A program made the position numbers and the translations under genes. Under the pieces are notes generated by a model. The model ran no database searches and was not told where the DNA came from. It saw only the letters and a program-made list of their open reading frames with translations. From a virus, in the UHGV virus genome UHGV-0127965: DNA of 37,909 nucleotides. One strand, written 5' to 3'. This document shows, piece after piece, positions 2,995 to 37,859 of this stretch. Each line of letters begins with the position of its first letter. Within the stretch, counting starts at the first letter, position 1.

Positions 2995-3004
2995 TGTAAA
3001 TTCC

Positions 3005-3301
3005 TCAGTCATTACTGATAGCGCCATAGCGTGAGCGGTAATTACGCAGGCGCGGGTCGATATATTCAGGGAAGTGGGTATATGTGGCTTTGCGTAATGG
3101 TCGGATTGATGTTTCGTTTATTCGGTCTTTTTCCTGTTTTTCTGCGAGTTGTATATCGCGTCGGTACTTCCGTTCTGCTTTTGTTTCTGGTGGCAGAGCA
3201 AGAAACGCGCCGAGATTATTCTTGATACTTTCCAGCACCTCCGATACGGAATTGCCGGAACAGCGGCGCGGGTCATCCGCACCATACAGAGGCGCTGGCA
3301 T
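3005..3301 (-). CDS. Hypothetical protein, 98 aa
   Basis: ATG with AGGAG RBS; in the early operon. Confidence 0.5.
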
Positions 3302-25831: not shown

Positions 25832-27249
25832 TGCCGATTCAGCAACTTCAGCTTATGAAAGGTGTCGGCAAAGACTTTCGAAACGCCGACTATATCGACT
25901 ATCTGCCAGTGAATATGTTGGCTACACCCAAAGAAATCCTGAACAGCAGCGGATATCTTCGCTCATTCCCGGGCATTGCCAAACGTTCTGATGTGAACGG
26001 CGTATCGCGCGGAGTTGAGTACAACATGGCGCAGAGTGCTGTTTATCGCGTGTGTGGCGGCAAGCTGTACAAAGGAGAAAGTGAAGTCGGTGATGTTGCC
26101 GGAAGTGGTCGTGTATCAATGGCGCATGGTCGGACATCTCAGGCTGTAGGCGTTAATGGCCAACTGGTCGAGTATCGTTATGATGGCACGGTTAAAACAG
26201 TCTCAAACTGGCCTACAGACAGCGGATTCACGCAGTATGAGTTAGGTTCTGTTCGTGACATTACGCGCTTACGCGGGCGTTATGCGTGGTCAAAAGACGG
26301 CACTGATTCATGGTTTATCACTGACCTTGAAGACGAATCGCATCCTGACCGCTACAGCGCACAATATCGCGCAGAATCGCAGCCTGACGGCATCATCGGC
26401 ATCGGAACATGGCGAGACTTCATCGTCTGCTTTGGTTCATCGACGATTGAATATTTTTCCCTGACAGGTGCAACAACTGTTGGTGCTGCTTTGTATGTCG
26501 CACAGCCATCACTGATGGTGCAAAAAGGCATCGCCGGGACTTACTGCAAAACGCCATTCGCTGATTCTTATGCGTTCATCAGCAATCCGGCAACAGGTGC
26601 GCCGTCTGTATACATCATCGGCTCCGGTCAGGTATCACCAATCGCCAGCGCGAGCATTGAGAAAATCCTTCGTTCCTACACTGCTGATGAACTGGCTGAT
26701 GGTGTGATGGAATCGCTGCGATTTGATGCTCATGAGTTGCTGATTATCCATCTTCCGCGTCACGTCCTCGTGTACGACGCATCTTCAAGCGCCAATGGTC
26801 CGCAATGGTGTGTGCTGAAAACAGGACTGTATGATGATGTGTACCGCGCTATCGACTTCATTTACGAAGGCAATCAGATAACGTGCGGCGATAAACTGGA
26901 GTCCGTGACCGGGAAATTGCAATTCGATATATCTTCACAATACGAAAAACAACAAGAGCATATTTTATATTCCCCTCTAATAAAGGCAGATAACGCTTTA
27001 ATAAATGACCTTGAATTAGAAACATCTGGCGGCGTGTGTGATAGAATAGATAAAATATTTATATCAGCCACTACAGATGGAATTAGTTACGGTCGTGAGC
27101 AAATGGTCGTATTACAAAAACCATTTGTATATGACAATCGCGTTTTATGGCGAAAGGTTGGTCGAGTTAGACGCCTCATTGGATTTAAATTCAGAGTTAT
27201 TGCAAAAGGTCCTGTCACATTATCAGGCCTTTCTATTCGTGTAACATAA
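25831..27249 (+). CDS. Tail accessory / head completion protein (P22 gp10-like)
   Basis: 472 aa in the P22 order after gp4; the final 110 codons or so are AT-rich, unlike the rest. Confidence 0.8.
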   Translation: MPIQQLQLMKGVGKDFRNADYIDYLPVNMLATPKEILNSSGYLRSFPGIAKRSDVNGVSRGVEYNMAQSAVYRVCGGKLYKGESEVGDVAGSGRVSMAHGRTSQAVGVNGQLVEYRYDGTVKTVSNWPTDSGFTQYELGSVRDITRLRGRYAWSKDGTDSWFITDLEDESHPDRYSAQYRAESQPDGIIGIGTWRDFIVCFGSSTIEYFSLTGATTVGAALYVAQPSLMVQKGIAGTYCKTPFADSYAFISNPATGAPSVYIIGSGQVSPIASASIEKILRSYTADELADGVMESLRFDAHELLIIHLPRHVLVYDASSSANGPQWCVLKTGLYDDVYRAIDFIYEGNQITCGDKLESVTGKLQFDISSQYEKQQEHILYSPLIKADNALINDLELETSGGVCDRIDKIFISATTDGISYGREQMVVLQKPFVYDNRVLWRKVGRVRRLIGFKFRVIAKGPVTLSGLSIRVT

Positions 27250-27270
27250 ATCGAAACTCAAGGAGTAGAT

Positions 27271-27804
27271 ATGTTAAGTGAAAACGCAAAAGATATCGAA
27301 GGATATGAAGGACTGTACGCCATCACTAATGATGGTAGAGTTTACTCGCATTCAAGAGTAAATTTGAGGGGGCGTCTTATTAAGGGGAGGTGGCTGAAGC
27401 ATAATCATAACGTAAATGGATATAAGTATGTGTGTTTATATAAGGATGGCGTAAAAAAGAACATACTAATACATAAGCTTGTTGCATCTCACTTTGTTGG
27501 TGGATTTGCTGAAGGGTTACAGGTAAATCATATAGATGGTGATAAATATAATAATAACTATCTAAATCTTGAATGGGTTACTCCATCAGGAAACATCTCA
27601 CACTCATATGGATTGGAATCGAGAGGTAATGTAAAAGGAGAAAGGAATGGTAATTCTAAAATATCTAATGATGATGTCATAAAGATAAAAGAAATGGTTG
27701 CCAATGGATTTCCTCAGTGTGAAGTTGCTAAATTATTTGGAATTCACAATTCAAAGGTTAGTAGAATTGTAAATGGCAAGGCATGGAGGCATGTTAATGG
27801 CTGA
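27271..27804 (+). CDS. Free-standing HNH homing endonuclease (NUMOD4-like plus HNH plus C-terminal HTH)
   Basis: [16 protein letters not shown] (NUMOD4-like), HKLVASHF...[24 protein letters not shown] (HNH) and a C-terminal HTH; AT-rich island; AGGAG RBS. Confidence 0.8.
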
Positions 27805-28498
27805 TTCGAATCTCAACACCCCTGTTATTGTGCAGGCTACACGACTCGATACATCAATCCTTCCACGCAATATATTCAGCCAGTCTTACCTGCTGTATGT
27901 CATAAATCAGGGTGCTGATGTTGGCGCAATTGCCGGGAAGGCAAATCAGGCTGGTCAGGGCGCTTACGATGCTCAGGTAAAAAACGATGAACAGGACGTC
28001 GAACTGGCAGATCATGACGCAAGAATCACCGCAAACACAAAAGCGATAAATCTCCTTGAGGTCAGGTTAACAACCGCCGAAGGGAAGATAGTCGTACTGC
28101 GTAGCGATGTTGATTACTTGCTGGATGAGGTTATCGCTATTCAGGCGCATCTGGTCACTGTTGACCAAAGACTGGATGTCATAGAAAGCGATGTATCTGA
28201 CATTAAGAGTGATTACGTATCGAAAACCGTAACCGAATCGCAGTCTCTTGCGTCACCGCTGGATGTAAAAACATCATATTCAGTTGATGGAATTCAGGTC
28301 GTTGGAGCAAGGCAGACCGGATGGACTGCAGCCACAGGTACACCTCTTCTTGGCTCATTCAACGCTAACCAGTCATACACGGTCGGCACTACGTACACAC
28401 AATCCGAAGTCGCGGCTCTCGCTACAGGTTTGCAGCAGGCTCGGCAGCGTATTCTGGCGCTTGAAACGGCACTTAGATTACATGGGCTGATTGACTGA
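27797..28498 (+). CDS. Tail needle protein (P22 gp26-like)
   Basis: N-terminus [28 protein letters not shown] and a trimeric coiled coil as in P22 gp26; GGAGG RBS; start overlaps the HNH gene end. Confidence 0.85.
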
Positions 28499-29658: not shown

Positions 29659-31134
29659 ATGGCTACGTGGCAACAGGGTATTAATTCTGGTGGGTTTCTT
29701 GCTGGCATCGGTGCGCAAAATGAGAATGCGCCAAAGGCAAACGACATTAACGCAACGCTTGGTCTGATCCGCGAAAACAATGAACTGGCTCGCTCAGGTG
29801 CAAATAACGTTGGCCTGACCGCGTTACGTGGTCTGGCTGGAGTTGCTGATATTTATAAGCAGGAACAGCAACAGAAAGCGATTAATGCGTTCAATAAGGT
29901 TCATGCTGATGCATGGGCTTCTGGTGATCCATCGGGACTATTTAAGTTTGCCAAGGAAAATCCAGCGTTTGTTGCGCAGGCACAACAGGCGTTTTCCGGT
30001 CTTAATGAGCAGCAACGCAACGATATGGGCGATTTAGCCATGAGGGCTAACGTCGCTCTTTCTCAGGGACCGGAAGCCTACAGTAAATTCATTACTGACA
30101 ACAAGGACAGGTTAAATCGCGTTGGGGCTAATGCTGACTGGATGATTCAGACAGGTATCCAGAATCCAGAGCAGCTATCACACATGCTGACTACTATGTC
30201 TCTCGGTGCACTTGGGCCAGAAAAGGCGTTTGCTGTTCAGGACAAGATGGCTGGTCGTGAAATTGACCGAGGCAGGCTGGCAGAGACAATCCGCAGCAAT
30301 CAGGCTGGAGAGGCGCTTCAGGCGAGAGGGCAGGATATTAGCCGAGCAAATGCGTTAACGTCAGCATATGCACCAACAGCCGCAATGCAGAATTACAATC
30401 AGTACGCGCAAATGTTAAAGGCAGATCCAGATGGTGCAGCGGCATTTGCGGCAGCGGCGGGAATTAATCCCAATGCTAAGAAATTACTTAAGGTTGAAAC
30501 CAATCCTGATGGCTCGGTAACTAAGTATTACACCGATGGCAGCGAGGAAGCCGGAAAACTAAACCAACCTATATCTGGTGATGGCATTAAACCAATTAGT
30601 TTGCCACAAGCGCAAAGCATCATAGATAAGGCTAATGAGGGTTCCAAGAAGGCGGCAGGATTTGCTTTGCGATTAAAAGATTCAATGGACTCAATGAATC
30701 AGCTTAGTAAAAGCATTGACCCTAAGCGAGTTGCATTAATAAATCGCTCTCTTGGTGATGGGACTATTGCAAATTTAAGCCTATCACCAGCGGAGCAGCA
30801 ATATATGGTAAATGCGAGAGACGCCTTGTATGCAATTTTGCGCCCAGAAACAGGTGCAGCAATTACTCTGCCAGAGATGCAGGAGTATTCCAAAATGTAC
30901 CTGCCTCAGCCCGGTGATTCCAAGGCTGCTACTGAAACAAAAATGCGAAAAATGCAGGGCCAATATAACTCATTACGTGGTCAGTCTGGTCGCGTTTATG
31001 ATGCTTTGGTGGTTTCAAGTGCTGCAAATAGTCAACAACAGAGCAATAGCCAACAACCGACAAATACCCAACAGCAGCAGAGTCAATCCGGATCATATAC
31101 CTCAAAATCAGGCATTCAATTTACGGTGGAATGA
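29659..31134 (+). CDS. Ejection (E) protein, P22 gp20-like
   Basis: 491 aa between the gp7-like and gp16-like genes; Gln/Ala-rich. Confidence 0.7.
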
Positions 31135-33137
31135 TGAAAGTAACTGCAAACGGTAAGACATTTACCTTCCCTGATGGTACGAGCACGGAAGATATTGGCA
31201 CCGCCATTGATGAGTATTTTGCTGGACAGTCAGCGCCAACACAACAAGGTGTTCAGCAATCGCCAGCAGACAACTCACTTGCATCAGGATATGCACAGCT
31301 TGCCACTCAGCAGAAGGAAGGACTAGATCGCTCTGCTGAGCAAGGGGCTGTTTTAGGTGCTGCAATGCGCGATGCCGTTACCGGTGAAAGCCGAATGACA
31401 CCAGAAATGGAGAGACTGCAAAATGTTGGGTCTGCTCCAGAGCTTAATAGCTTAAGCACTGATGCGCTGCGTGCTGGATTGGGGCAGCTATTTGGTTCCG
31501 ACGCTTCACAGGAGAAAATACTGCAAAGTATTGGCGGGAAAATCCGGAAGGATGAGAAGGGAAATTCCATAGTCACCCTTCCTTCAGGGGAATATGCACT
31601 TAACAAGCCTGGTTTGTCACCGCAGGATATAACGTCATTCTTGGCAAATGCTCTTGCATTCACTCCAGCAGGTAGAGCTGCGTCTGTTGTAGGTGCAACA
31701 CTAAAATCAGGCGCTACTGATTTAGCTTTACAGGGTGCCACTAAGATCGCTGGCGGTGAGAATGTTAATCCAGTTCAAACTGCAATTTCTGCTGGACTTG
31801 GTGGGGTACTGAAGGGTGTAGAAAACACCGCAAGCGCAGTGTCTCGCTCTGCTATGGGTAAGATTGCTCCTGAAAAACAAGCTCAGATTGACTTTGCCAA
31901 GCAGAACAACTTGCCACTGATGACAACAGATCTTGTGGAACCGGGAACAAATATTGGTAAGCAAGCACGAGCTATGGCTGAGCGAATCCCAATAGCCGGA
32001 ACAGGTGGGATAAGAAATGCACAGCAAAAGGCCAGGGAAGATTTAGTTAGAACATTTAGCGATAATGTTGGCGGAATATCTGACGCACAACTTTACCAAT
32101 CAGCTACTCGTGGTCAGCAGCAATTTATTCAGGCTGCTGGCAAGAGGTACGACAGGATCATCAGTTTGATGGGGGATACTCCTGTTGACATCACTGGAAC
32201 AGTGAAAGCAATTGATGATCAGATTTCCAAGTTAACTCGCCCAGGAGTATCGCAAGACCGCTCAGCTGTTTCTGTCCTTCAACAGTTTAGAAATGACATC
32301 ACCAGCGGTCCAAATAACCTGCAATTAGCTAGAGAAAACCGCACAAACTTACGTAAGCGCTTTATGGCAGCACCTGACGAGGTCGATAGAGATACGCTGG
32401 AGAAAGCTGCGCAGTCTGTTTATAACGCATACACAACAGACATGAAAAAAGCGGTTGGCGCAAAACTAGGTGCGAAGGAAGCGCAAAACATGTCGCGTGT
32501 TGATCGTTCTTGGGCAAAGTTCAACGACATGATGAGCAATACACGTGTCCAAAAAGCTATTCAGAGTGGTAAAACAACGCCAGAAGATGTCACTAAACTA
32601 GTATTCAGCCAAAGCCCAGCGGAAAGGGCGCAACTTTATAGATTGCTTGATGATAGTGGGCGTCAAAATGCTAGAGCAGCACTTGTTCAGCGTGCAATGG
32701 ATAAGGCGACAAGCGATTCAGGAAAGCTTAGCGTTGAGAAGTTTATTAATGAAATGAAAAGGAATCGGAAGCAGGCTGAGACGTTCTTCAGAGGAGAGCA
32801 TGGGAAACAGCTTGATGGGATAATGAAATATCTTGATTCCACTAGACAGGCAGCTACTGCTGCCGCAAGCCCACTGACAGGGCAAATGGTAGCTGGTCCA
32901 GCAGCGCTGATAACAGCTCTTGCGTCTGTTACAAATCCAATGTTTGCAAAAGTTGCGGCAGTTGGAGCTGGTATCGGTATGGCTGGCAGGGGCTATGAGT
33001 CACGCGCGATGAGGAACGCATTACTAAAGTTAGCAAACACGCCAAAAGGAAGTACTGCTTATGATAGAGCGATCAGACGGGTATCTGAAACTCTTACACC
33101 TCTAATTCAGGCTTCAAGTGAGAAAGCCCAGCAGTAA
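31131..33137 (+). CDS. Ejection (E) protein, P22 gp16-like
   Basis: 668 aa; last gene of the ejection-protein block; ATGATG coupling to the previous gene. Confidence 0.7.
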
Positions 33138-33145
33138 AAAGTTGG

Positions 33146-33490
33146 TTAGCGGTTGATGGTTGCTTTTTTCGGGTCATACCATCTCGGCCATTCTTTCAGG
33201 AATGGGAATGAGTCAGGTGCGTGGTTCTTTTTGTACGATTTAAGCAGCCTTAACCGCTCAATCGCACACTCATAAACCTCTTGTTGCCCTGTAGTCATCT
33301 CGGTCCATGAAAGGTGATCCATTGATAAGACAACGTTTTCAGCTTCTTTTATGAGGGCGTTTTTATTTCTCACCGCAGCAGCATGGCTGACAGAGCAATC
33401 CTGCCATATTCTTAAAAGCCAAATAGCCAAGCAGATGAAAAAAATGGTAGATAGCGATATATACACACCAACCTCCTTAGTTTTGAGCAT
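33146..33490 (-). CDS. Hypothetical membrane-anchored protein, 114 aa
   Basis: N-terminal hydrophobic helix (ISLSTIFFICLAIWLL); convergent with gp16; AT-rich; weak RBS. Confidence 0.45.
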   Translation of the reverse strand: MLKTKEVGVYISLSTIFFICLAIWLLRIWQDCSVSHAAAVRNKNALIKEAENVVLSMDHLSWTEMTTGQQEVYECAIERLRLLKSYKKNHAPDSFPFLKEWPRWYDPKKATINR

Positions 33491-33519
33491 GACGAAATTA
33501 ACCAGCCATCAGGCTGGTA

Positions 33520-33702
33520 TTAGTCACATTCTATTTCTTTTGTCGAGGTCCATACATAAGGGTCTGAGCAAACAACCTCACCATTTATCATGACGTCATA
33601 GCCCATTAGATATGAGTTACCACCAACAATCTGAGCGGCTATGACGCTAATGCTGGCGGCGCAGGCTGCACCAAAAACGAAACCAATTAATATATTTTTC
33701 AT
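33520..33702 (-). CDS. Hypothetical small secreted or membrane protein, 60 aa
   Basis: [24 protein letters not shown] hydrophobic N-terminus and two Cys; AT-rich; no clear SD. Confidence 0.4.
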
Positions 33703-33733
33703 TTTAATTACAAATAGTTATAGGATGAAAGTT

Positions 33734-33919
33734 ATGACCATAGAAGAACGTCTGAACAACATTGAGTTAAACCAAACCCTGCTTGACCAGCGCCTTTCAG
33801 ATCTTGAGCTTAAAGATCTTGATGCGCAAATATCAGAAGCAGAAGCCAAGCTCTCCAGCTTAAACCACCGTAAGAAGCAAATCCGCAATAGAATTACTCA
33901 GGGACGCGGAAGTTGTTGA
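33734..33919 (+). CDS. Hypothetical coiled-coil protein, about 61 aa
   Basis: ATG at 33734 (AGGA RBS) or 33725; opposite orientation to its neighbours. Confidence 0.35.
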   Translation: MTIEERLNNIELNQTLLDQRLSDLELKDLDAQISEAEAKLSSLNHRKKQIRNRITQGRGSC

Positions 33920-33928
33920 AATCATAGT

Positions 33929-34246
33929 CTATTTTTTCTCAGAGCTCATATTGTAATAGGTGGTATAAATAGAGATTGATTTCTGACATGCTTCAAGAAA
34001 TTGCTGCGGAGTCATCCCAAGCCTTGCTTGCTCTGTAGTAAGGAATCTCTGTAAGAATTCATTCCCACCCGGCATGTTTGTAGATTCTTGGAATATTGCC
34101 ATTTGTTTGATTGCACCACACATACCAGCCATTTTCGAAGCTATCATGAGGCCTTGTATTTCATCAAAACTGCTATCGTCTGATTTTGTTTCTGCGTTAG
34201 CTATGCTCGAGAGACACAGGAGCAATAGGATAGCGATACGTTTCAT
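33929..34246 (-). CDS. Secreted periplasmic protein, 105 aa
   Basis: Signal peptide MKRIAILLLLCLSSIANA; its ATG overlaps the TGA of the Mnt-like gene (ATGA coupling); AT-rich. Confidence 0.5.
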   Translation of the reverse strand: MKRIAILLLLCLSSIANAETKSDDSSFDEIQGLMIASKMAGMCGAIKQMAIFQESTNMPGGNEFLQRFLTTEQARLGMTPQQFLEACQKSISIYTTYYNMSSEKK

Positions 34247-34494
34247 TTTTCACCATTGCCATGCATACATTTTAACTTCTCAACATCATGCTCAAGCTCT
34301 ATCAGTCGCGATGCTATAGTTGCAAGATCTAGTGCTTGAATGTGTTTGTTTTTTTCGGTCCATGCTTCAAGTGCTGCGACCATCTCAGCATTTAATGAAC
34401 GAGAATTAGCCTCAGCCAGTTCAATAAGACGTTCCTTTATCTCTACAGGAAGCCTCAGATTCACTTGAGGGTTTTTGTACTTACGATCAGACAT
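34243..34494 (-). CDS. mnt: Mnt-like ribbon-helix-helix repressor
   Basis: N-terminal NPQVNLRLPVEIKERLIELAEANSRSLNAEMVAALE is an Arc/Mnt-type RHH motif; divergent from the Arc-like gene as in P22 immI. Confidence 0.65.
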   Translation of the reverse strand: MSDRKYKNPQVNLRLPVEIKERLIELAEANSRSLNAEMVAALEAWTEKNKHIQALDLATIASRLIELEHDVEKLKCMHGNGEK

Positions 34495-34598
34495 CGGCGC
34501 ATCCTGAATAATTTTTTACCACAGGATATGTAGGTATCTATTGACTATCAATGCGTACCTAAATACTATGTATGCGTACCACATACAAAGGAGCAAAA
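34495..34598. promoter_or_regulatory. Divergent Pant-like and Pmnt-like promoters with a partly palindromic operator
   Basis: Plus strand TTGACT (34541-46), 17 bp, TACTAT (34564-69), then an AGGAG RBS; minus strand TTGATA, 17 bp, TATCCT, with overlapping -35 hexamers; AGGTA...TTGActaTCAA...TACCT symmetry. Confidence 0.6.
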
Positions 34599-34745
34599 AT
34601 GAAAGTTAAGACATTAAGGATGCCAGAATGGCTGGAAAAGGCTTTGGAGCAGTCCGCGAAAAAGGATGATCGGTCGTTCAGTAATGAGGTATTGAGGAGA
34701 CTAAAGGAGTCAGTAGCTAAGGATGGAATTGTTTGTCCAGAATGA
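34599..34745 (+). CDS. arc: Arc-like ribbon-helix-helix repressor, 48 aa
   Basis: Not in the ORF track. MKVKTLRMPEWLEKALEQSAKKDDRSFSNEVLRRLKES is an Arc-type RHH fold; AGGAG RBS. Confidence 0.65.
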   Translation: MKVKTLRMPEWLEKALEQSAKKDDRSFSNEVLRRLKESVAKDGIVCPE

Positions 34746-34811
34746 GTAAAGCCCAAGCTATTGCGAGTAGCTCGGGCTTAAATCGCCAGTAAATTTTGAG
34801 GAAAAACTGAC

Positions 34812-35741
34812 ATGAAAAGTATAGCAACAGCAGTATCTACTATCAACGTGCCATTCCACGGCGAAGAGCTTTATGTCGTCAATCACAACGGTGAGCCGTA
34901 CACCCCAATGAAACCTATCGTTGAAGGTATGGGTATGGATTGGGCTTCACAGTTTACGAAAATAAAGCAACGGTTTAAAACCTCCATTGTGAAAATCACA
35001 ATGCAGCTTCCTGGTGATGAACAGTGCCGTGAGATTATTTGTTTGGCACTTCGCAAACTTGCTGGCTGGCTGCAAACCATCAGCCCTAACAAAGTCCGCC
35101 CTGAAATCCGCGACAAGGTAATCCAGTATCAGGAAGAGTGTGACGATGTGCTCTACGAGTACTGGACTAAAGGCCATGTAGTTAACCCACGCAAAGCTAA
35201 AAAGGCGTTGCCTGGTAAAATCACCACTGAACAGCAGGAAGCCATTAAACAACTCGTCATGAGTCGCGGTCAGTCTCTGCCAAAGGAAAAACAGGCTAAG
35301 GCGATGATCACCATGTGGTCGTCACTGAAATCCCATTTTGGATGTTCATACAAAGAAATCAGTGAGGGGCAGTTTACCGAAGCACTGTCACTTGCAGCTC
35401 GAGTTCCGCTTGAAGGTGAGTTCATTGGCAAACAAGAGAAGAAAACCAACGAGCTTTCTGCAAAAGAAGCAAACAGCCTTGTATGGTTATGGGATTATGC
35501 CAACCGCTCACAGGCATTATTCCGCGAACTGTATCCGGCGCTAAAACAAATTCAATCGAACTATTCAGGCAGATGCTACGACTACGGTCATGAGTTCTCG
35601 TATGTTATCGGAATGGCGAGAGACGTTTTAATAAACCACACACGAGATGTTGATATTAATGAACCAGACGGACCAACGAATCTTTCCGCATGGATGAGAC
35701 TTAAGAATAAAGAATTACCTCCTTCAGTACATAACTACTGA
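34812..35741 (+). CDS. ant: Antirepressor (P22 Ant-type)
   Basis: 309 aa after the Arc-like gene; N-terminus [11 protein letters not shown]...[18 protein letters not shown] resembles the P22-type antirepressor N-domain (from memory). Confidence 0.6.
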
Positions 35742-35841: not shown

Positions 35842-37611
35842 ATGACAGACATTACAGCCAATGTGATCGTATCGATGCCTTCGCAACTCTTCACTATGGC
35901 GCGTTCTTTTAAAGCCGTAGCCAATGGCAAAATTTATATCGGTAAAATTGACACTGACCCGGTAAATCCTGAAAACCAGATTCAGGTTTATGTGGAAAAT
36001 GAAGACGGCTCTCACATTCCCGTTTCGCAACCAATCATCATTAACGCTGCTGGTTACCCGGTATATAACGGACAGATTGCCAAATTCGTAACTGTGCAAG
36101 GCCATTCTATGGCTGTATACGATGCGTATGGAGCGCAGCAATTCTATTTTCCTAATGTGCTGAAGTATGACCCTGATCAAGCATACCCAAGATTGATTGA
36201 TGATCTGAAAAACATAGATGGAATATCTATGATAGGTGGTGGTTTATACAATGATATTAGGGAATACGCTGGTAACGGAATGGAAATAAATTGTACTGGT
36301 GGAATAGAATTTAATGATGGTTGCAGTGGTTTATTTATTCTTGATGAACGCGATAATAAAAGTGTAGACGATGGCGGAACTGTATTAGTTGATCGCTTAG
36401 GGCGTCGATGGAAACGTCAATTTGACGGAACCGCTCAACGTAGATGGTTTGGTCTGCCTGACAATGAAGGATTAACATCTGGGTGGGATTCATATGCACC
36501 ACCTCAAGAAAAGTCGCTAAAAGATGCGGTGCAAGACATAGCTGTAACTCCTGATGACGTATGTGTTAAGCATCGTGCCATAAAAGCATTCCGCAAATCA
36601 GTAGGAATTAAGGATAGTGCTGTAGCTGGAGCATTTATAGTTGGTGAGTTCCCAGAAGATTCAGATGTTGAACCCTCTGCTTCTGTTACAGGGTTTGAAT
36701 CATATGATGACATAGGAAAGTATCCAGGCAGGGATTCTGTCGCCTTATTCGCTCAGGCTGAATCTGCGCTCCCCATTGAGTTTTCTGATGGGGTGTTTAC
36801 CACGTCATCTGTAACGTCGCCCACTGTTCTAAGTGTTATCGGTAAAGTGCAGCCGGGAATGATTCTTGATGTTAACTTTGGAACCGGAGGATGGGTAGGC
36901 ACTGTCATAACGGCGGTAAACACTTCAACCGGAGAGTTAGCAATAAGTGGCTGGAGAAAAATTGACGGGACATCTTCTGCGGCAACAACGCCAGCGAATA
37001 GCACCCCGGCAGTAATAAACAGGCATAACAATTTATGGGCAGCTAACTTTAATGCCTTAACTACCCAAAATGGGGGCGCCAATCAAGCCATCGGTATTGA
37101 AACGGGGTTAAGTCTACTGAAAACAGGTACCGGCACCGGCTCAAAAGCATACTACGCGGTTAACCTTAGCAGTGGTGTTGGTGAAGACCCTCAGTATGGA
37201 TTTATGAATGGTGGAAAATTCCAGAAGATATTTTTTGCCCAACTTGCAACAGACTGTTCTTTCGAAAGCACCGCATTGGCTAGCACAACGGCTAAACATT
37301 GTAACTTCCACTCAACAGATGGTACGTCACTTTTCCGTGTCGGCTACACTGGATTGGAGGTGCAAGCTCTAGCAATTGAGTATATGACGTCAACGGGAAC
37401 TGTTAGTGAGGCTTCGGCTATTACTATAGCGACAGCGGCTGGCATTAATATCAACCTTGATGTCGCGTCACGTTATCCAGGAAGGTTGCGGAAAGTTAAA
37501 AACGCGTCAGGTGGTGCTATAACTGTTAACGGCGGAGTCGCATTGACGGACGGTATGTACGCCGAATTTATCAGCGACGGCTCCTCATGGGTAACGCTGT
37601 TTACTAAATGA
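35842..37611 (+). CDS. Tailspike: P22 gp9-like N-terminal head-binding domain fused to a different receptor-binding domain
   Basis: First 115 aa or so ([11 protein letters not shown]...[30 protein letters not shown]...[15 protein letters not shown]...LKYDPDQ) match the P22 tailspike N-domain; the remaining 470 aa do not and begin in an AT-rich stretch. Confidence 0.8.
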
Positions 37612-37652: not shown

Positions 37653-37859
37653 TTATCTTATCTCATTACCGTCGCCATCAATAAACTCAATGGCTGGGAA
37701 AGCTCTGTTATCAATAACAGTAATGTTGCATTTATGGCATATATATGCGTATTCAACTCCATTCGCATTTAGTAGAGTTTTTTCGCGAAACATCTCTAAA
37801 CCACAGTCGCAAAAAAGACGGCGATAAATAACTTTTACATCGCATTCTTTAACTTTCAT
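37653..37859 (-). CDS. Hypothetical Cys-rich (zinc-ribbon-like) protein, 68 aa
   Basis: AGGAG RBS; CDC...CHKC cysteine pairs; convergent with the tailspike. Confidence 0.5.
   Translation of the reverse strand: MKVKECDVKVIYRRLFCDCGLEMFREKTLLNANGVEYAYICHKCNITVIDNRAFPAIEFIDGDGNEIR

Follow-up and report, generated by a model that had tools for sequence, protein, structure and literature searches.

Do the small genes that lie between the last injection gene and the immunity repressors of a P22-like phage form one system, and what might they do for the prophage that carries them? The question is raised by the viral genome UHGV-0127965, of which the whole stretch of 37,909 nucleotides (the window) was analysed. 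The interval under study, positions 33146-34246, is flanked by a gp16-type injection gene and an Arc/ribbon-helix-helix (RHH) Mnt-like gene and holds four small open reading frames (ORFs), here called orf106, orf60, orf61 and orf105. An earlier note, made from the letters of the DNA, had described them as an AT-rich cluster between the last ejection gene and the immI repressors, at the equivalent of the P22 sieA locus, and had proposed that they make up a single undescribed module for superinfection exclusion or conversion. The four ORFs are found where it placed them, with a GC content of 0.415 against 0.474 in the window, and the site is indeed the positional equivalent of P22 sieA and orf59a. 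What falls away is the single module and the novelty of the locus. The interval is, with somewhat better than even confidence, to be read as the cargo part of a known locus, the ant moron, in which three separately exchangeable modules of envelope-type cargo have been brought together; the modules are mnt with orf105, orf60 with orf61, and orf106.

In P22-like phages the ant moron is an insertion bounded by gene 16 and the tailspike gene (Villafane, Casjens et al. 2008; PMC2629481), for which ten types were described in sixteen genomes, with many unique genes of unknown function. Everything that marks it is found in the window, a P22-like (Lederbergvirus) mosaic whose closest relatives are HZ41, IME10 and N7: the position between a gene 16 homologue and the tailspike gene, the immI elements mnt, arc, sar and ant accompanied by leftward non-morphogenetic genes, and a content that varies among syntenic phages. 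Unlike the ant morons surveyed, the window holds orf106, orf60, orf61 and orf105 as a set. The locus proteins were mapped onto all fetched loci and, with duplicates removed, at least one of the four genes was present in 68 loci, in 17 gene combinations. None of the 68 held all four, and orf106 and orf105 did not occur together in any of the 27 orf106 loci or the 25 orf105 loci. orf61 was present in 17 of the 18 orf60 loci, and orf60 was absent from 18 of the 35 orf61 loci. None of 5426 complete E. coli genomes covered at least 80% of positions 33000-34900. The four genes lie on separate mosaic segments with junctions at the gene boundaries: N7 and HZ41 have the gp16 end and orf106 in common with the window, Kapi1 has orf60 and orf61, Emek has orf61 only, and S.Kent 1-2-1 and many E. 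coli prophages match in orf61, orf105 and immI. The cargo of the locus likewise differs among N7, Kapi1, Emek, CUS-3, SEN22 and P22. A comparison across P22-like prophages, which the earlier note had itself suggested, thus yields three modules that assort separately, and the four cargo genes are uncharacterised genes in a new combination at a known hypervariable locus.

The four ORFs are real genes. Across 26-43 homologous loci per gene, codon position 3 accounted for 15 of the 19 variable sites in orf106, 6 of 8 in orf60, 21 of 35 in orf61 and 45 of 81 in orf105. In the annotated frame the ratio of nonsynonymous to synonymous polymorphism (pN/pS) was 0-0.09 for orf106 and for orf60, 0-0.23 for orf61 and 0.28 for orf105, while in most other frames it was above 1, the exception being the wobble-matched antisense frame, as expected. 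Between orf61 and its most divergent haplotype (27 haplotypes in 43 loci) there are 12 synonymous changes and no nonsynonymous ones. This variation at position 3, together with the low pN/pS in the true frame, goes beyond chance and places all four genes under purifying selection.

Corrections to the annotation follow from the comparison. The leftmost ORF had been taken as a membrane-anchored protein of 114 residues; the single hydrophobic segment bears out the anchor, while the start is most likely the GTG at 33466, which gives 106 residues. The DNA ahead of this codon reads ACT-AAGGAGGT-TGGT-GTG, in which AAGGAGGT is a strong Shine-Dalgarno (SD) sequence, most homologues begin at the same place (MYISL...), and the nine-residue prefix MLKTKEVGV that the longer form would add also stands ahead of an unrelated hkcB-like gene in E. 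coli ET734; these three observations are the grounds for the shorter form. At the DNA level ATGCTCAAAACTAAGGAGGTTGGTGTG is identical at window positions 33467-33490 and at 3001-3027 of the ET734 locus (L004), ahead of two unrelated genes, so that the mosaic junction falls exactly at the GTG start codon and the SD sequence lies within the shared boundary sequence. Further corrections concern orf60, which PGAP often omits, and orf61, which it often calls as a 92-residue protein. In the Emek locus and many E. coli prophages the homology sets in only 1-16 nucleotides ahead of the ATG of the 61-residue orf61, so the 92-residue form is not the conserved gene. In ET734 (L004:3060-3239) and CT02 (L005:3524-3703) orf60 is left unannotated by RefSeq/PGAP and the extended orf61 call overlaps it on the other strand, and in one genome (A3019) the extended call bears the label "hemolysin XhlA family protein". 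This omission and extension are probably a systematic mis-annotation. The description of orf61 as an antisense coiled-coil ORF is right as to strand, although the ORF lies clear of the true coding regions of orf106, orf60 and orf105.

As the earlier note expected, none of the four proteins can be placed in a named family. Scans against Pfam, NCBIfam and PADLOC gave nothing above threshold for any of them, and their PHROG matches were confined to families of unknown function (phrog_10450 for orf106, phrog_37095 for orf60 and phrog_7586 for orf61 among them). Sequence and profile searches of the PDB with the orf105, orf106 and orf60 families returned only noise, P450 and de novo designed filaments among it. 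An accession-based literature search found no match. On the best reading the four genes would encode prophage-expressed envelope proteins, and signal and transmembrane (TM) predictions agree with an envelope location for the three leftward products. The likeliest of the four to act as a periplasmic superinfection-exclusion or conversion factor would seem to be orf105.

The orf105 gene is tied to the prophage repressor. Its ATG overlaps the TGA of mnt as ATGA at 34243-34246, the overlap that the earlier note had pointed out, and all 31 close homologues (at least 65% identity, window copy included) start 4 nucleotides inside the stop of an RHH/Mnt gene, across at least five Mnt alleles. The arrangement extends to distant members. 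A 45% identical homologue in a Vibrio fluvialis P22-like prophage has the same 4-nucleotide overlap with Mnt (Pfam Repressor_Mnt match), and one of 41% identity sits in a minimal P22-like locus between a leftward tailspike gene and a leftward gp16 gene, directly after a rightward Arc-family gene. In a siphovirus tail cluster another homologue, at 45%, comes after an Arc-family repressor, with a Bro-N/P22_AR_C antirepressor in divergent orientation. A further homologue overlaps by 4 nucleotides an upstream gene of 111 residues that has a faint HTH_26 (helix-turn-helix, HTH) match only and may be a repressor. One exception is the Kapi1_059 subfamily (47% identity), which lies further down the leftward string, often after orf60, and does not adjoin an RHH gene. 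In the annotation of P22 the Pmnt operon consists of mnt, orf59a and a terminator, with sieA transcribed separately from PsieA, and orf105 is therefore the positional equivalent of orf59a and not of sieA. The siphovirus locus (L097:3504-4324), in which an Arc-family repressor, the orf105 homologue, a Bro-N/P22_AR_C antirepressor and pRha form an immI-like module within a siphovirus-type tail gene cluster, indicates that insertions resembling the ant moron are not confined to P22-like podoviruses.

The family itself is large and uniform. A word-indexed search had given only 11 clusters; an exhaustive profile hidden Markov model (HMM) search gave 256 at 50% identity, 167 of which had E<1e-10, and almost all are about 100 residues long. 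The named members, all labelled "hypothetical", are from E. coli, Salmonella, Citrobacter, Vibrio fluvialis and Pseudomonas fragi; no relatives were found in Pfam, PDB or BFVD. In an alignment of 52 sequences C43, F52, Q53, E72, R75 and C87 are invariant, within the consensus AKxxGxCGxxxQMxxFQxxTKMxGGDEFxxRFxxTEAARLGxT...C......Y. Among 109 full-length members a strongly hydrophobic N-terminal h-region was present in 108, preceded by K/R in 105, and all 109 have a small -1/-3 cleavage-type site, with a lipobox in a single member. The mature part has exactly two cysteines in 103 and the pair is exactly 44 residues apart in 100. The AlphaFold2 (AF2) model (pLDDT 74) consists of the signal peptide and three helices in a helical bundle. 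A relationship with CpxP or Spy, suggested by the LTTEQ of orf105 (motif LTXXQ), was dropped, with none of the 52 members matching any such Pfam model.

From these features a path for orf105 can be proposed. Pmnt, a lysogen promoter in P22, would drive mnt, and orf105 would be translated through coupling at the ATGA stop-start. The product would be exported by Sec and its signal cleaved, leaving a periplasmic helical bundle of about 87 residues, presumably locked by a C43-C87 disulfide. As a prophage-expressed periplasmic factor it would most probably block a step at which incoming phages cross the envelope, in the manner of Spackle or SieA; a modification of envelope physiology is the less likely alternative. 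An anti-phage role for orf105 nevertheless stays tentative, appreciably short of an even prospect, with host fitness as its chief competitor. It is possible, with more reserve still, that the orf105 family represents a new and widespread class of prophage-expressed periplasmic superinfection-exclusion proteins, with orf106 possibly a blocker analogous to SieA.

For orf106 the placing is different. A Kyte-Doolittle scan finds its one hydrophobic segment at residues 3-21. In all homologues the N-terminal flank is made up of two uncharged residues and the C-terminal domain is positively charged, which by the positive-inside rule predicts an N-out/C-in topology with the C-terminal domain in the cytoplasm. 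The AF2 model, a confident one (pLDDT 85), has two helices, one of them long, and an extended tail, and its fold matches are generic only. The gene converges on gp16 with a gap of 8 nucleotides. It occurs together with this gp16 allele in 26 of 27 fetched loci, the exception having its gp16 cut by the end of the contig, and in all 60 E. coli records covering at least 80% of a query made of the gp16 3' end and orf106 both were present; the partial matches listed for this query held only a boundary of 40-77 nucleotides at the orf106 start. The product would be an inner-membrane-anchored protein with a helical domain that probably faces the cytoplasm, encoded in the gp16-proximal slot of sieA and hkcB and inherited with a gp16 allele.

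The remaining module pairs orf60 with orf61. orf60 had been described as a hydrophobic peptide; it appears envelope-targeted, with one hydrophobic segment in the Kyte-Doolittle scan, but it is not merely hydrophobic, the signal peptide being followed by a conserved hydrophilic C-terminus with two cysteines. An alignment of 13 sequences (A3), reaching down to 48% identity, has a variable signal-like N-terminus and an invariant two-cysteine C-terminal motif, and the DeepTMHMM annotation of Kapi1_060, which is near-identical, gives residues 1-22 as signal and 23-61 as outside. The product would then be a secreted two-cysteine peptide, expressed leftward and of about 37 residues when mature. In two loci (L078 and L079) an orf60 homologue of 58-63% identity stands directly after a bona fide Mnt with Arc and Repressor_Mnt domains, so that orf60 too can be cargo of the Mnt operon. 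Next after it come a 78-residue lipoprotein gene (lipobox LTGC; L078:3499-3735, L079:2846-3082) and, converging with it, a gene for an 825-residue protein in the gp16 position with an N-terminal SLT lytic-transglycosylase domain (L078:3753-6230, L079:3100-5577), both loci being P22-like prophages. A pairing of this kind would suit a hydrolase and its inhibitor. orf61, a coiled-coil protein ending in a basic tail, has no hydrophobic segment in the same scan. It is always found in late-operon orientation and would be a small protein read with the late operon. At the protein level it matches the Emek and Kapi1 copies at 100% identity; the Emek DNA is 93.6% identical. A reading of orf61 as an XhlA-like lysis-cassette protein is ruled out by a score far below threshold (Pfam PF10779, 14.1 bits where the gathering cutoff is 34.7, E=0.056), by the lack of a TM segment and by the gene orientation.

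In Kapi1 (L001, 2695-3454) the downstream flank of hyp19, a gp16-type gene, holds hyp20, a paralogue from the orf105 family, followed by hyp21 (orf60) and hyp22 (orf61). Its authors could not delete hyp19, and clones with the hyp19 flanks made the prophage unstable and proved toxic to non-lysogens, the responsible gene not being mapped (PMC8787464). The toxic clone carries hyp20 and probably also hyp21 and hyp22. The gene for the O-antigen modification by Kapi1 was never identified (PMC8787464).

Evidence on expression, from related lysogens and from the window, is indirect and points both ways. A promoter scan and operator-like repeats in the window reveal the Pmnt/Pant architecture, and a direct repeat (D1, 34534-34575) lies within it, an arrangement that agrees with the annotation of P22. 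In a Gally lysogen mnt and its neighbours are transcribed, and the mnt region is induced 6-40 times in macrophages (PMC9928086). Kapi1_059-062 are absent from the list of silent genes in the Kapi1 lysogen (PMC12922286).

Several points weigh against an exclusion function expressed from the prophage. mnt transcripts were undetected in the Kapi1 lysogen (PMC12922286), so not every lysogen has an active Pmnt. No convincing promoter was found inside the cluster, and the hairpin that separates orf60 from orf106, perhaps a weak terminator or attenuator, could break the operon. Searches found no exclusion protein that any of the four resembles in sequence or fold. Members of the orf105 family are also present outside P22-like phages, among them in a siphovirus, a lambdoid early region and an AlpA element, which argues against a target specific to P22-type ejection proteins. 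As to orf106, Citrobacter prophages with an 83% identical gp16 lack it and have a different neighbour of 204 residues, and its linkage to gp16 may simply reflect the 8-nucleotide gap between convergent genes. What the data show is that the genes are real and modular, that envelope targeting is predicted and that the coupling to the repressor is conserved; expression in the lysogen, topology, the disulfide and any anti-phage function are inferred.

Of the other explanations, the one that survives best is that orf105 and orf60 are periplasmic factors of lysogenic conversion or host fitness, altering envelope stress tolerance, host interaction or competitiveness. Expression coupled to a repressor is common to many morons, and a family spread over Escherichia, Salmonella, Citrobacter, Vibrio and Pseudomonas and over several phage types suggests a conserved host target. 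The macrophage induction of the Gally mnt region fits as well, and Kapi1, which carries an orf105 paralogue and orf60, makes its host more competitive and alters its O-antigen in an unexplained way. The Kapi1 phenotypes are, however, not mapped to the paralogue or to orf60, deletion of mnt in Gally had no macrophage phenotype, and no similarity to known virulence or envelope-stress factors was found. We regard this explanation as rather unlikely, yet deserving of weight.

That the leftward RNA is the main activity, with the proteins secondary, seems improbable. On this view a lysogen transcript complementary to orf61, the 3' end of gp16 and the late read-through message would adjust the amount of tailspike or keep out homologous phages. 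There is precedent in STnc6030, a lysogen-expressed antisense RNA of more than 700 nucleotides at an injection-gene/tailspike junction that alone excludes BTP1 (PMC7067206), and in the effect of the P22 ant moron on late read-through into the tailspike gene (PMC2629481); deletion of sieA improves tailspike synthesis. In the window no intrinsic terminator was found after orf106 for about 300 nucleotides into gp16, and orf106 is tightly linked in cis to its gp16 allele. The three leftward ORFs are nonetheless under strong purifying selection at the protein level, the families are kept at 40-60% protein identity where the nucleotide sequence is unrelated, and the signal peptide and cysteine spacing of orf105 are kept across 256 clusters. 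Protein-level conservation of this kind leaves antisense RNA as an extra layer only.

A single coordinated exclusion or conversion system of four genes under Mnt control is very improbable. The genes do adjoin, three are on one strand, orf105 is coupled to mnt and orf61 nearly always accompanies orf60, but the distribution described above, with no locus holding all four, orf106 and orf105 never together, orf61 often without orf60, junctions at the gene boundaries and no complete E. coli genome covering at least 80% of positions 33000-34900, largely refutes it. Hardly credible is the view of mnt-orf105 as a toxin-antitoxin-like addiction pair, an RHH antitoxin followed by a toxin overlapping by 4 nucleotides: the gene order and ATGA resemble type II operons, Mnt has weak matches to the FitA, RelB and HicB RHH models, SEN22 has a HicA-like toxin at the same locus and the Kapi1 fragment with the paralogue and probably orf60 was toxic in non-lysogens, but orf105 is predicted to be exported and probably disulfide-bonded, unlike type II toxins, it matches no toxin family in Pfam or NCBIfam, Mnt is the established repressor of Pant with its operator architecture present in the window, the Kapi1_059 subfamily is not next to any RHH gene, and the Kapi1 toxicity is anecdotal, from an unmapped multicopy clone. 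The SEN22 locus (L085, 3266-4120) carries a HicA/YcfA-like toxin gene and a 217-residue partner directly after mnt, in the same position of the ant moron, so the locus can also host cargo of toxin-antitoxin type.

The features of the region are collected in the table.

Table. Features of the ant moron and its flanks in the window
Feature	Coordinates	Strand	Remarks
gp16-type DNA-injection (ejection) gene	31131..33137	+	668-aa ORF; last late virion-block gene before the ant moron
orf106 (earlier 114-aa ORF, 33146-33490)	33146..33466	-	inner-membrane-anchored helical protein (predicted); GTG start
GC-rich hairpin CCAGCC-TGAT-GGCTGG then TTAATTT, between orf60 and orf106	33495..33516	-	RNAfold scan, about -11 kcal/mol; putative weak terminator or attenuator
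orf60	33520..33702	-	60 aa; small secreted or membrane-tethered peptide (predicted); two C-terminal Cys
orf61	33734..33919	+	61-aa coiled-coil protein, basic tail; sole cluster gene in late-operon orientation
orf105	33929..34246	-	105 aa; secreted helical protein (predicted; Sec signal, ANA|E); two invariant Cys; coupled to mnt
Mnt-like ribbon-helix-helix repressor gene	34243..34494	-	Pfam Arc E=3e-10; heads leftward operon
Divergent, overlapping Pmnt/Pant promoter-like hexamers	34523..34575		promoter scan; two 21-nt operator-like repeats
Arc-like repressor gene	34572..34745	+	Pfam Arc E=2e-5; 31% identical to P22 Arc
sar-like antisense RNA between arc and ant	34745..34811	-	Rfam RF00262, in P22 sar position
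Antirepressor gene ant	34812..35741	+	Pfam P22_AR_N E=7e-45, P22_AR_C E=6e-30
Tailspike gene, right boundary of the ant moron	35842..37611	+	589-aa ORF

The gp16-type protein, for which a Pfam scan gave no match, agrees at 100% identity with the injection proteins of phage N7 and E. coli prophages. The hairpin site was also picked up as an inverted repeat. The Mnt-like protein is 95% identical to the annotated CUS-3 mnt product and 42% to P22 Mnt over the RHH region. The sar-like RNA scores 29.3 bits, below the gathering score of 43 (E=0.004), over the full length of the model, and the N-terminal head-binding region of the tailspike is 68-98% identical to those of related phages. Elsewhere in the window, an ORF of 68 residues downstream of the tailspike gene on the opposite strand (37653-37859) has two cysteine pairs (CDCG...CHKC) with the look of a zinc ribbon, and within the virion gene block GC drops markedly to 0.37-0.39 over positions 27001-28000, from about 0.50 on either side, and the GC skew there is strongly positive.

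If orf105 does act in exclusion, its production would be tied to that of the repressor at a constant ratio, and the protein would disable a step in envelope crossing that several phage morphotypes share; orf106 could be an inner-membrane blocker matched to its own gp16 type, in analogy to SieA. sieA is present in 22 of 66 P22-like phages, about a third (PMC10883804); in the window the slot is filled combinatorially by small envelope proteins. The conserved translational coupling to a prophage repressor marks the large, unnamed orf105 family as a concrete candidate for a new periplasmic factor of exclusion or conversion, and routine annotation of such loci, with orf60 omitted and orf61 stretched and sometimes given the XhlA label, is corrected.

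One comparison is with SieA, an inner-membrane protein of 162-164 residues with three predicted TM domains, the motif FxRYPxEAxxFNK and its own promoter, which blocks injection and has gp16 and gp20 as targets (PMC10883804). orf106 resembles it in occupying the same gp16-proximal leftward slot, in its predicted inner-membrane anchor and in being inherited with a specific gp16 allele. It differs in length and in having no similarity: BLASTP of the four proteins against P22 SieA gave no match at E<=10, types B and C not being compared directly, and PADLOC gave none. The motif, present in P22 SieA, is absent from all six frames of positions 33000-34300, no PsieA-like promoter was found for orf106, and the Kyte-Doolittle scan gives four segments in P22 SieA against one each in orf106 and orf60 and none in orf105 or orf61. 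Similar in form to orf106 is hkcB of HK620, CUS-3, epsilon34 and SEN22, which lies in the same gp16-converging slot, starts at GTG and encodes 107 residues, with a TM segment at the N-terminus and a helical domain of about 85 residues behind it; the hkcB of ET734 even has an identical upstream SD and prefix sequence. hkcB, unlike orf106, travels with different gp16 types, and BLASTP of orf106 against the CUS-3 and SEN22 proteins matched only the nine-residue upstream prefix, with no similarity in the protein proper.

For orf105 the comparison is with T4 Spackle, a periplasmic inhibitor of the tail lysozyme gp5 that is made as a precursor of 97 residues and matures to a 75-residue helical bundle with one disulfide (PMC7677548). 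orf105 is predicted to be of this kind, though not of this family, with a precursor of about 100 residues, a cleaved signal, a periplasmic helical bundle and one cysteine pair; no sequence or fold homology to Spackle was detected. The STnc6030 transcript of BTP1 offers a parallel at the level of the locus, being leftward, lysogen-expressed, at the injection-gene/tailspike junction of a P22-like prophage, and conferring exclusion (PMC7067206), but it has no ORF above 60 residues, whereas the leftward strand of the window encodes three proteins under purifying selection. st313-td was considered as ant-moron cargo and ruled out, st313-td being bstA, next to cI. It is bstA in its cI-bstA arrangement in BTP1, together with rexAB and cI of lambda, that provides the parallel for gene order. 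The proteins are unrelated, and orf105 differs in being (by prediction) periplasmic and in its 4-nucleotide translational overlap with a secondary (immI) repressor. In both cases an accessory or defence gene stands directly downstream of a lysogeny repressor and is expressed with it, and in the same way orf105 and its relatives follow Mnt and Arc repressors, and possibly an HTH gene.

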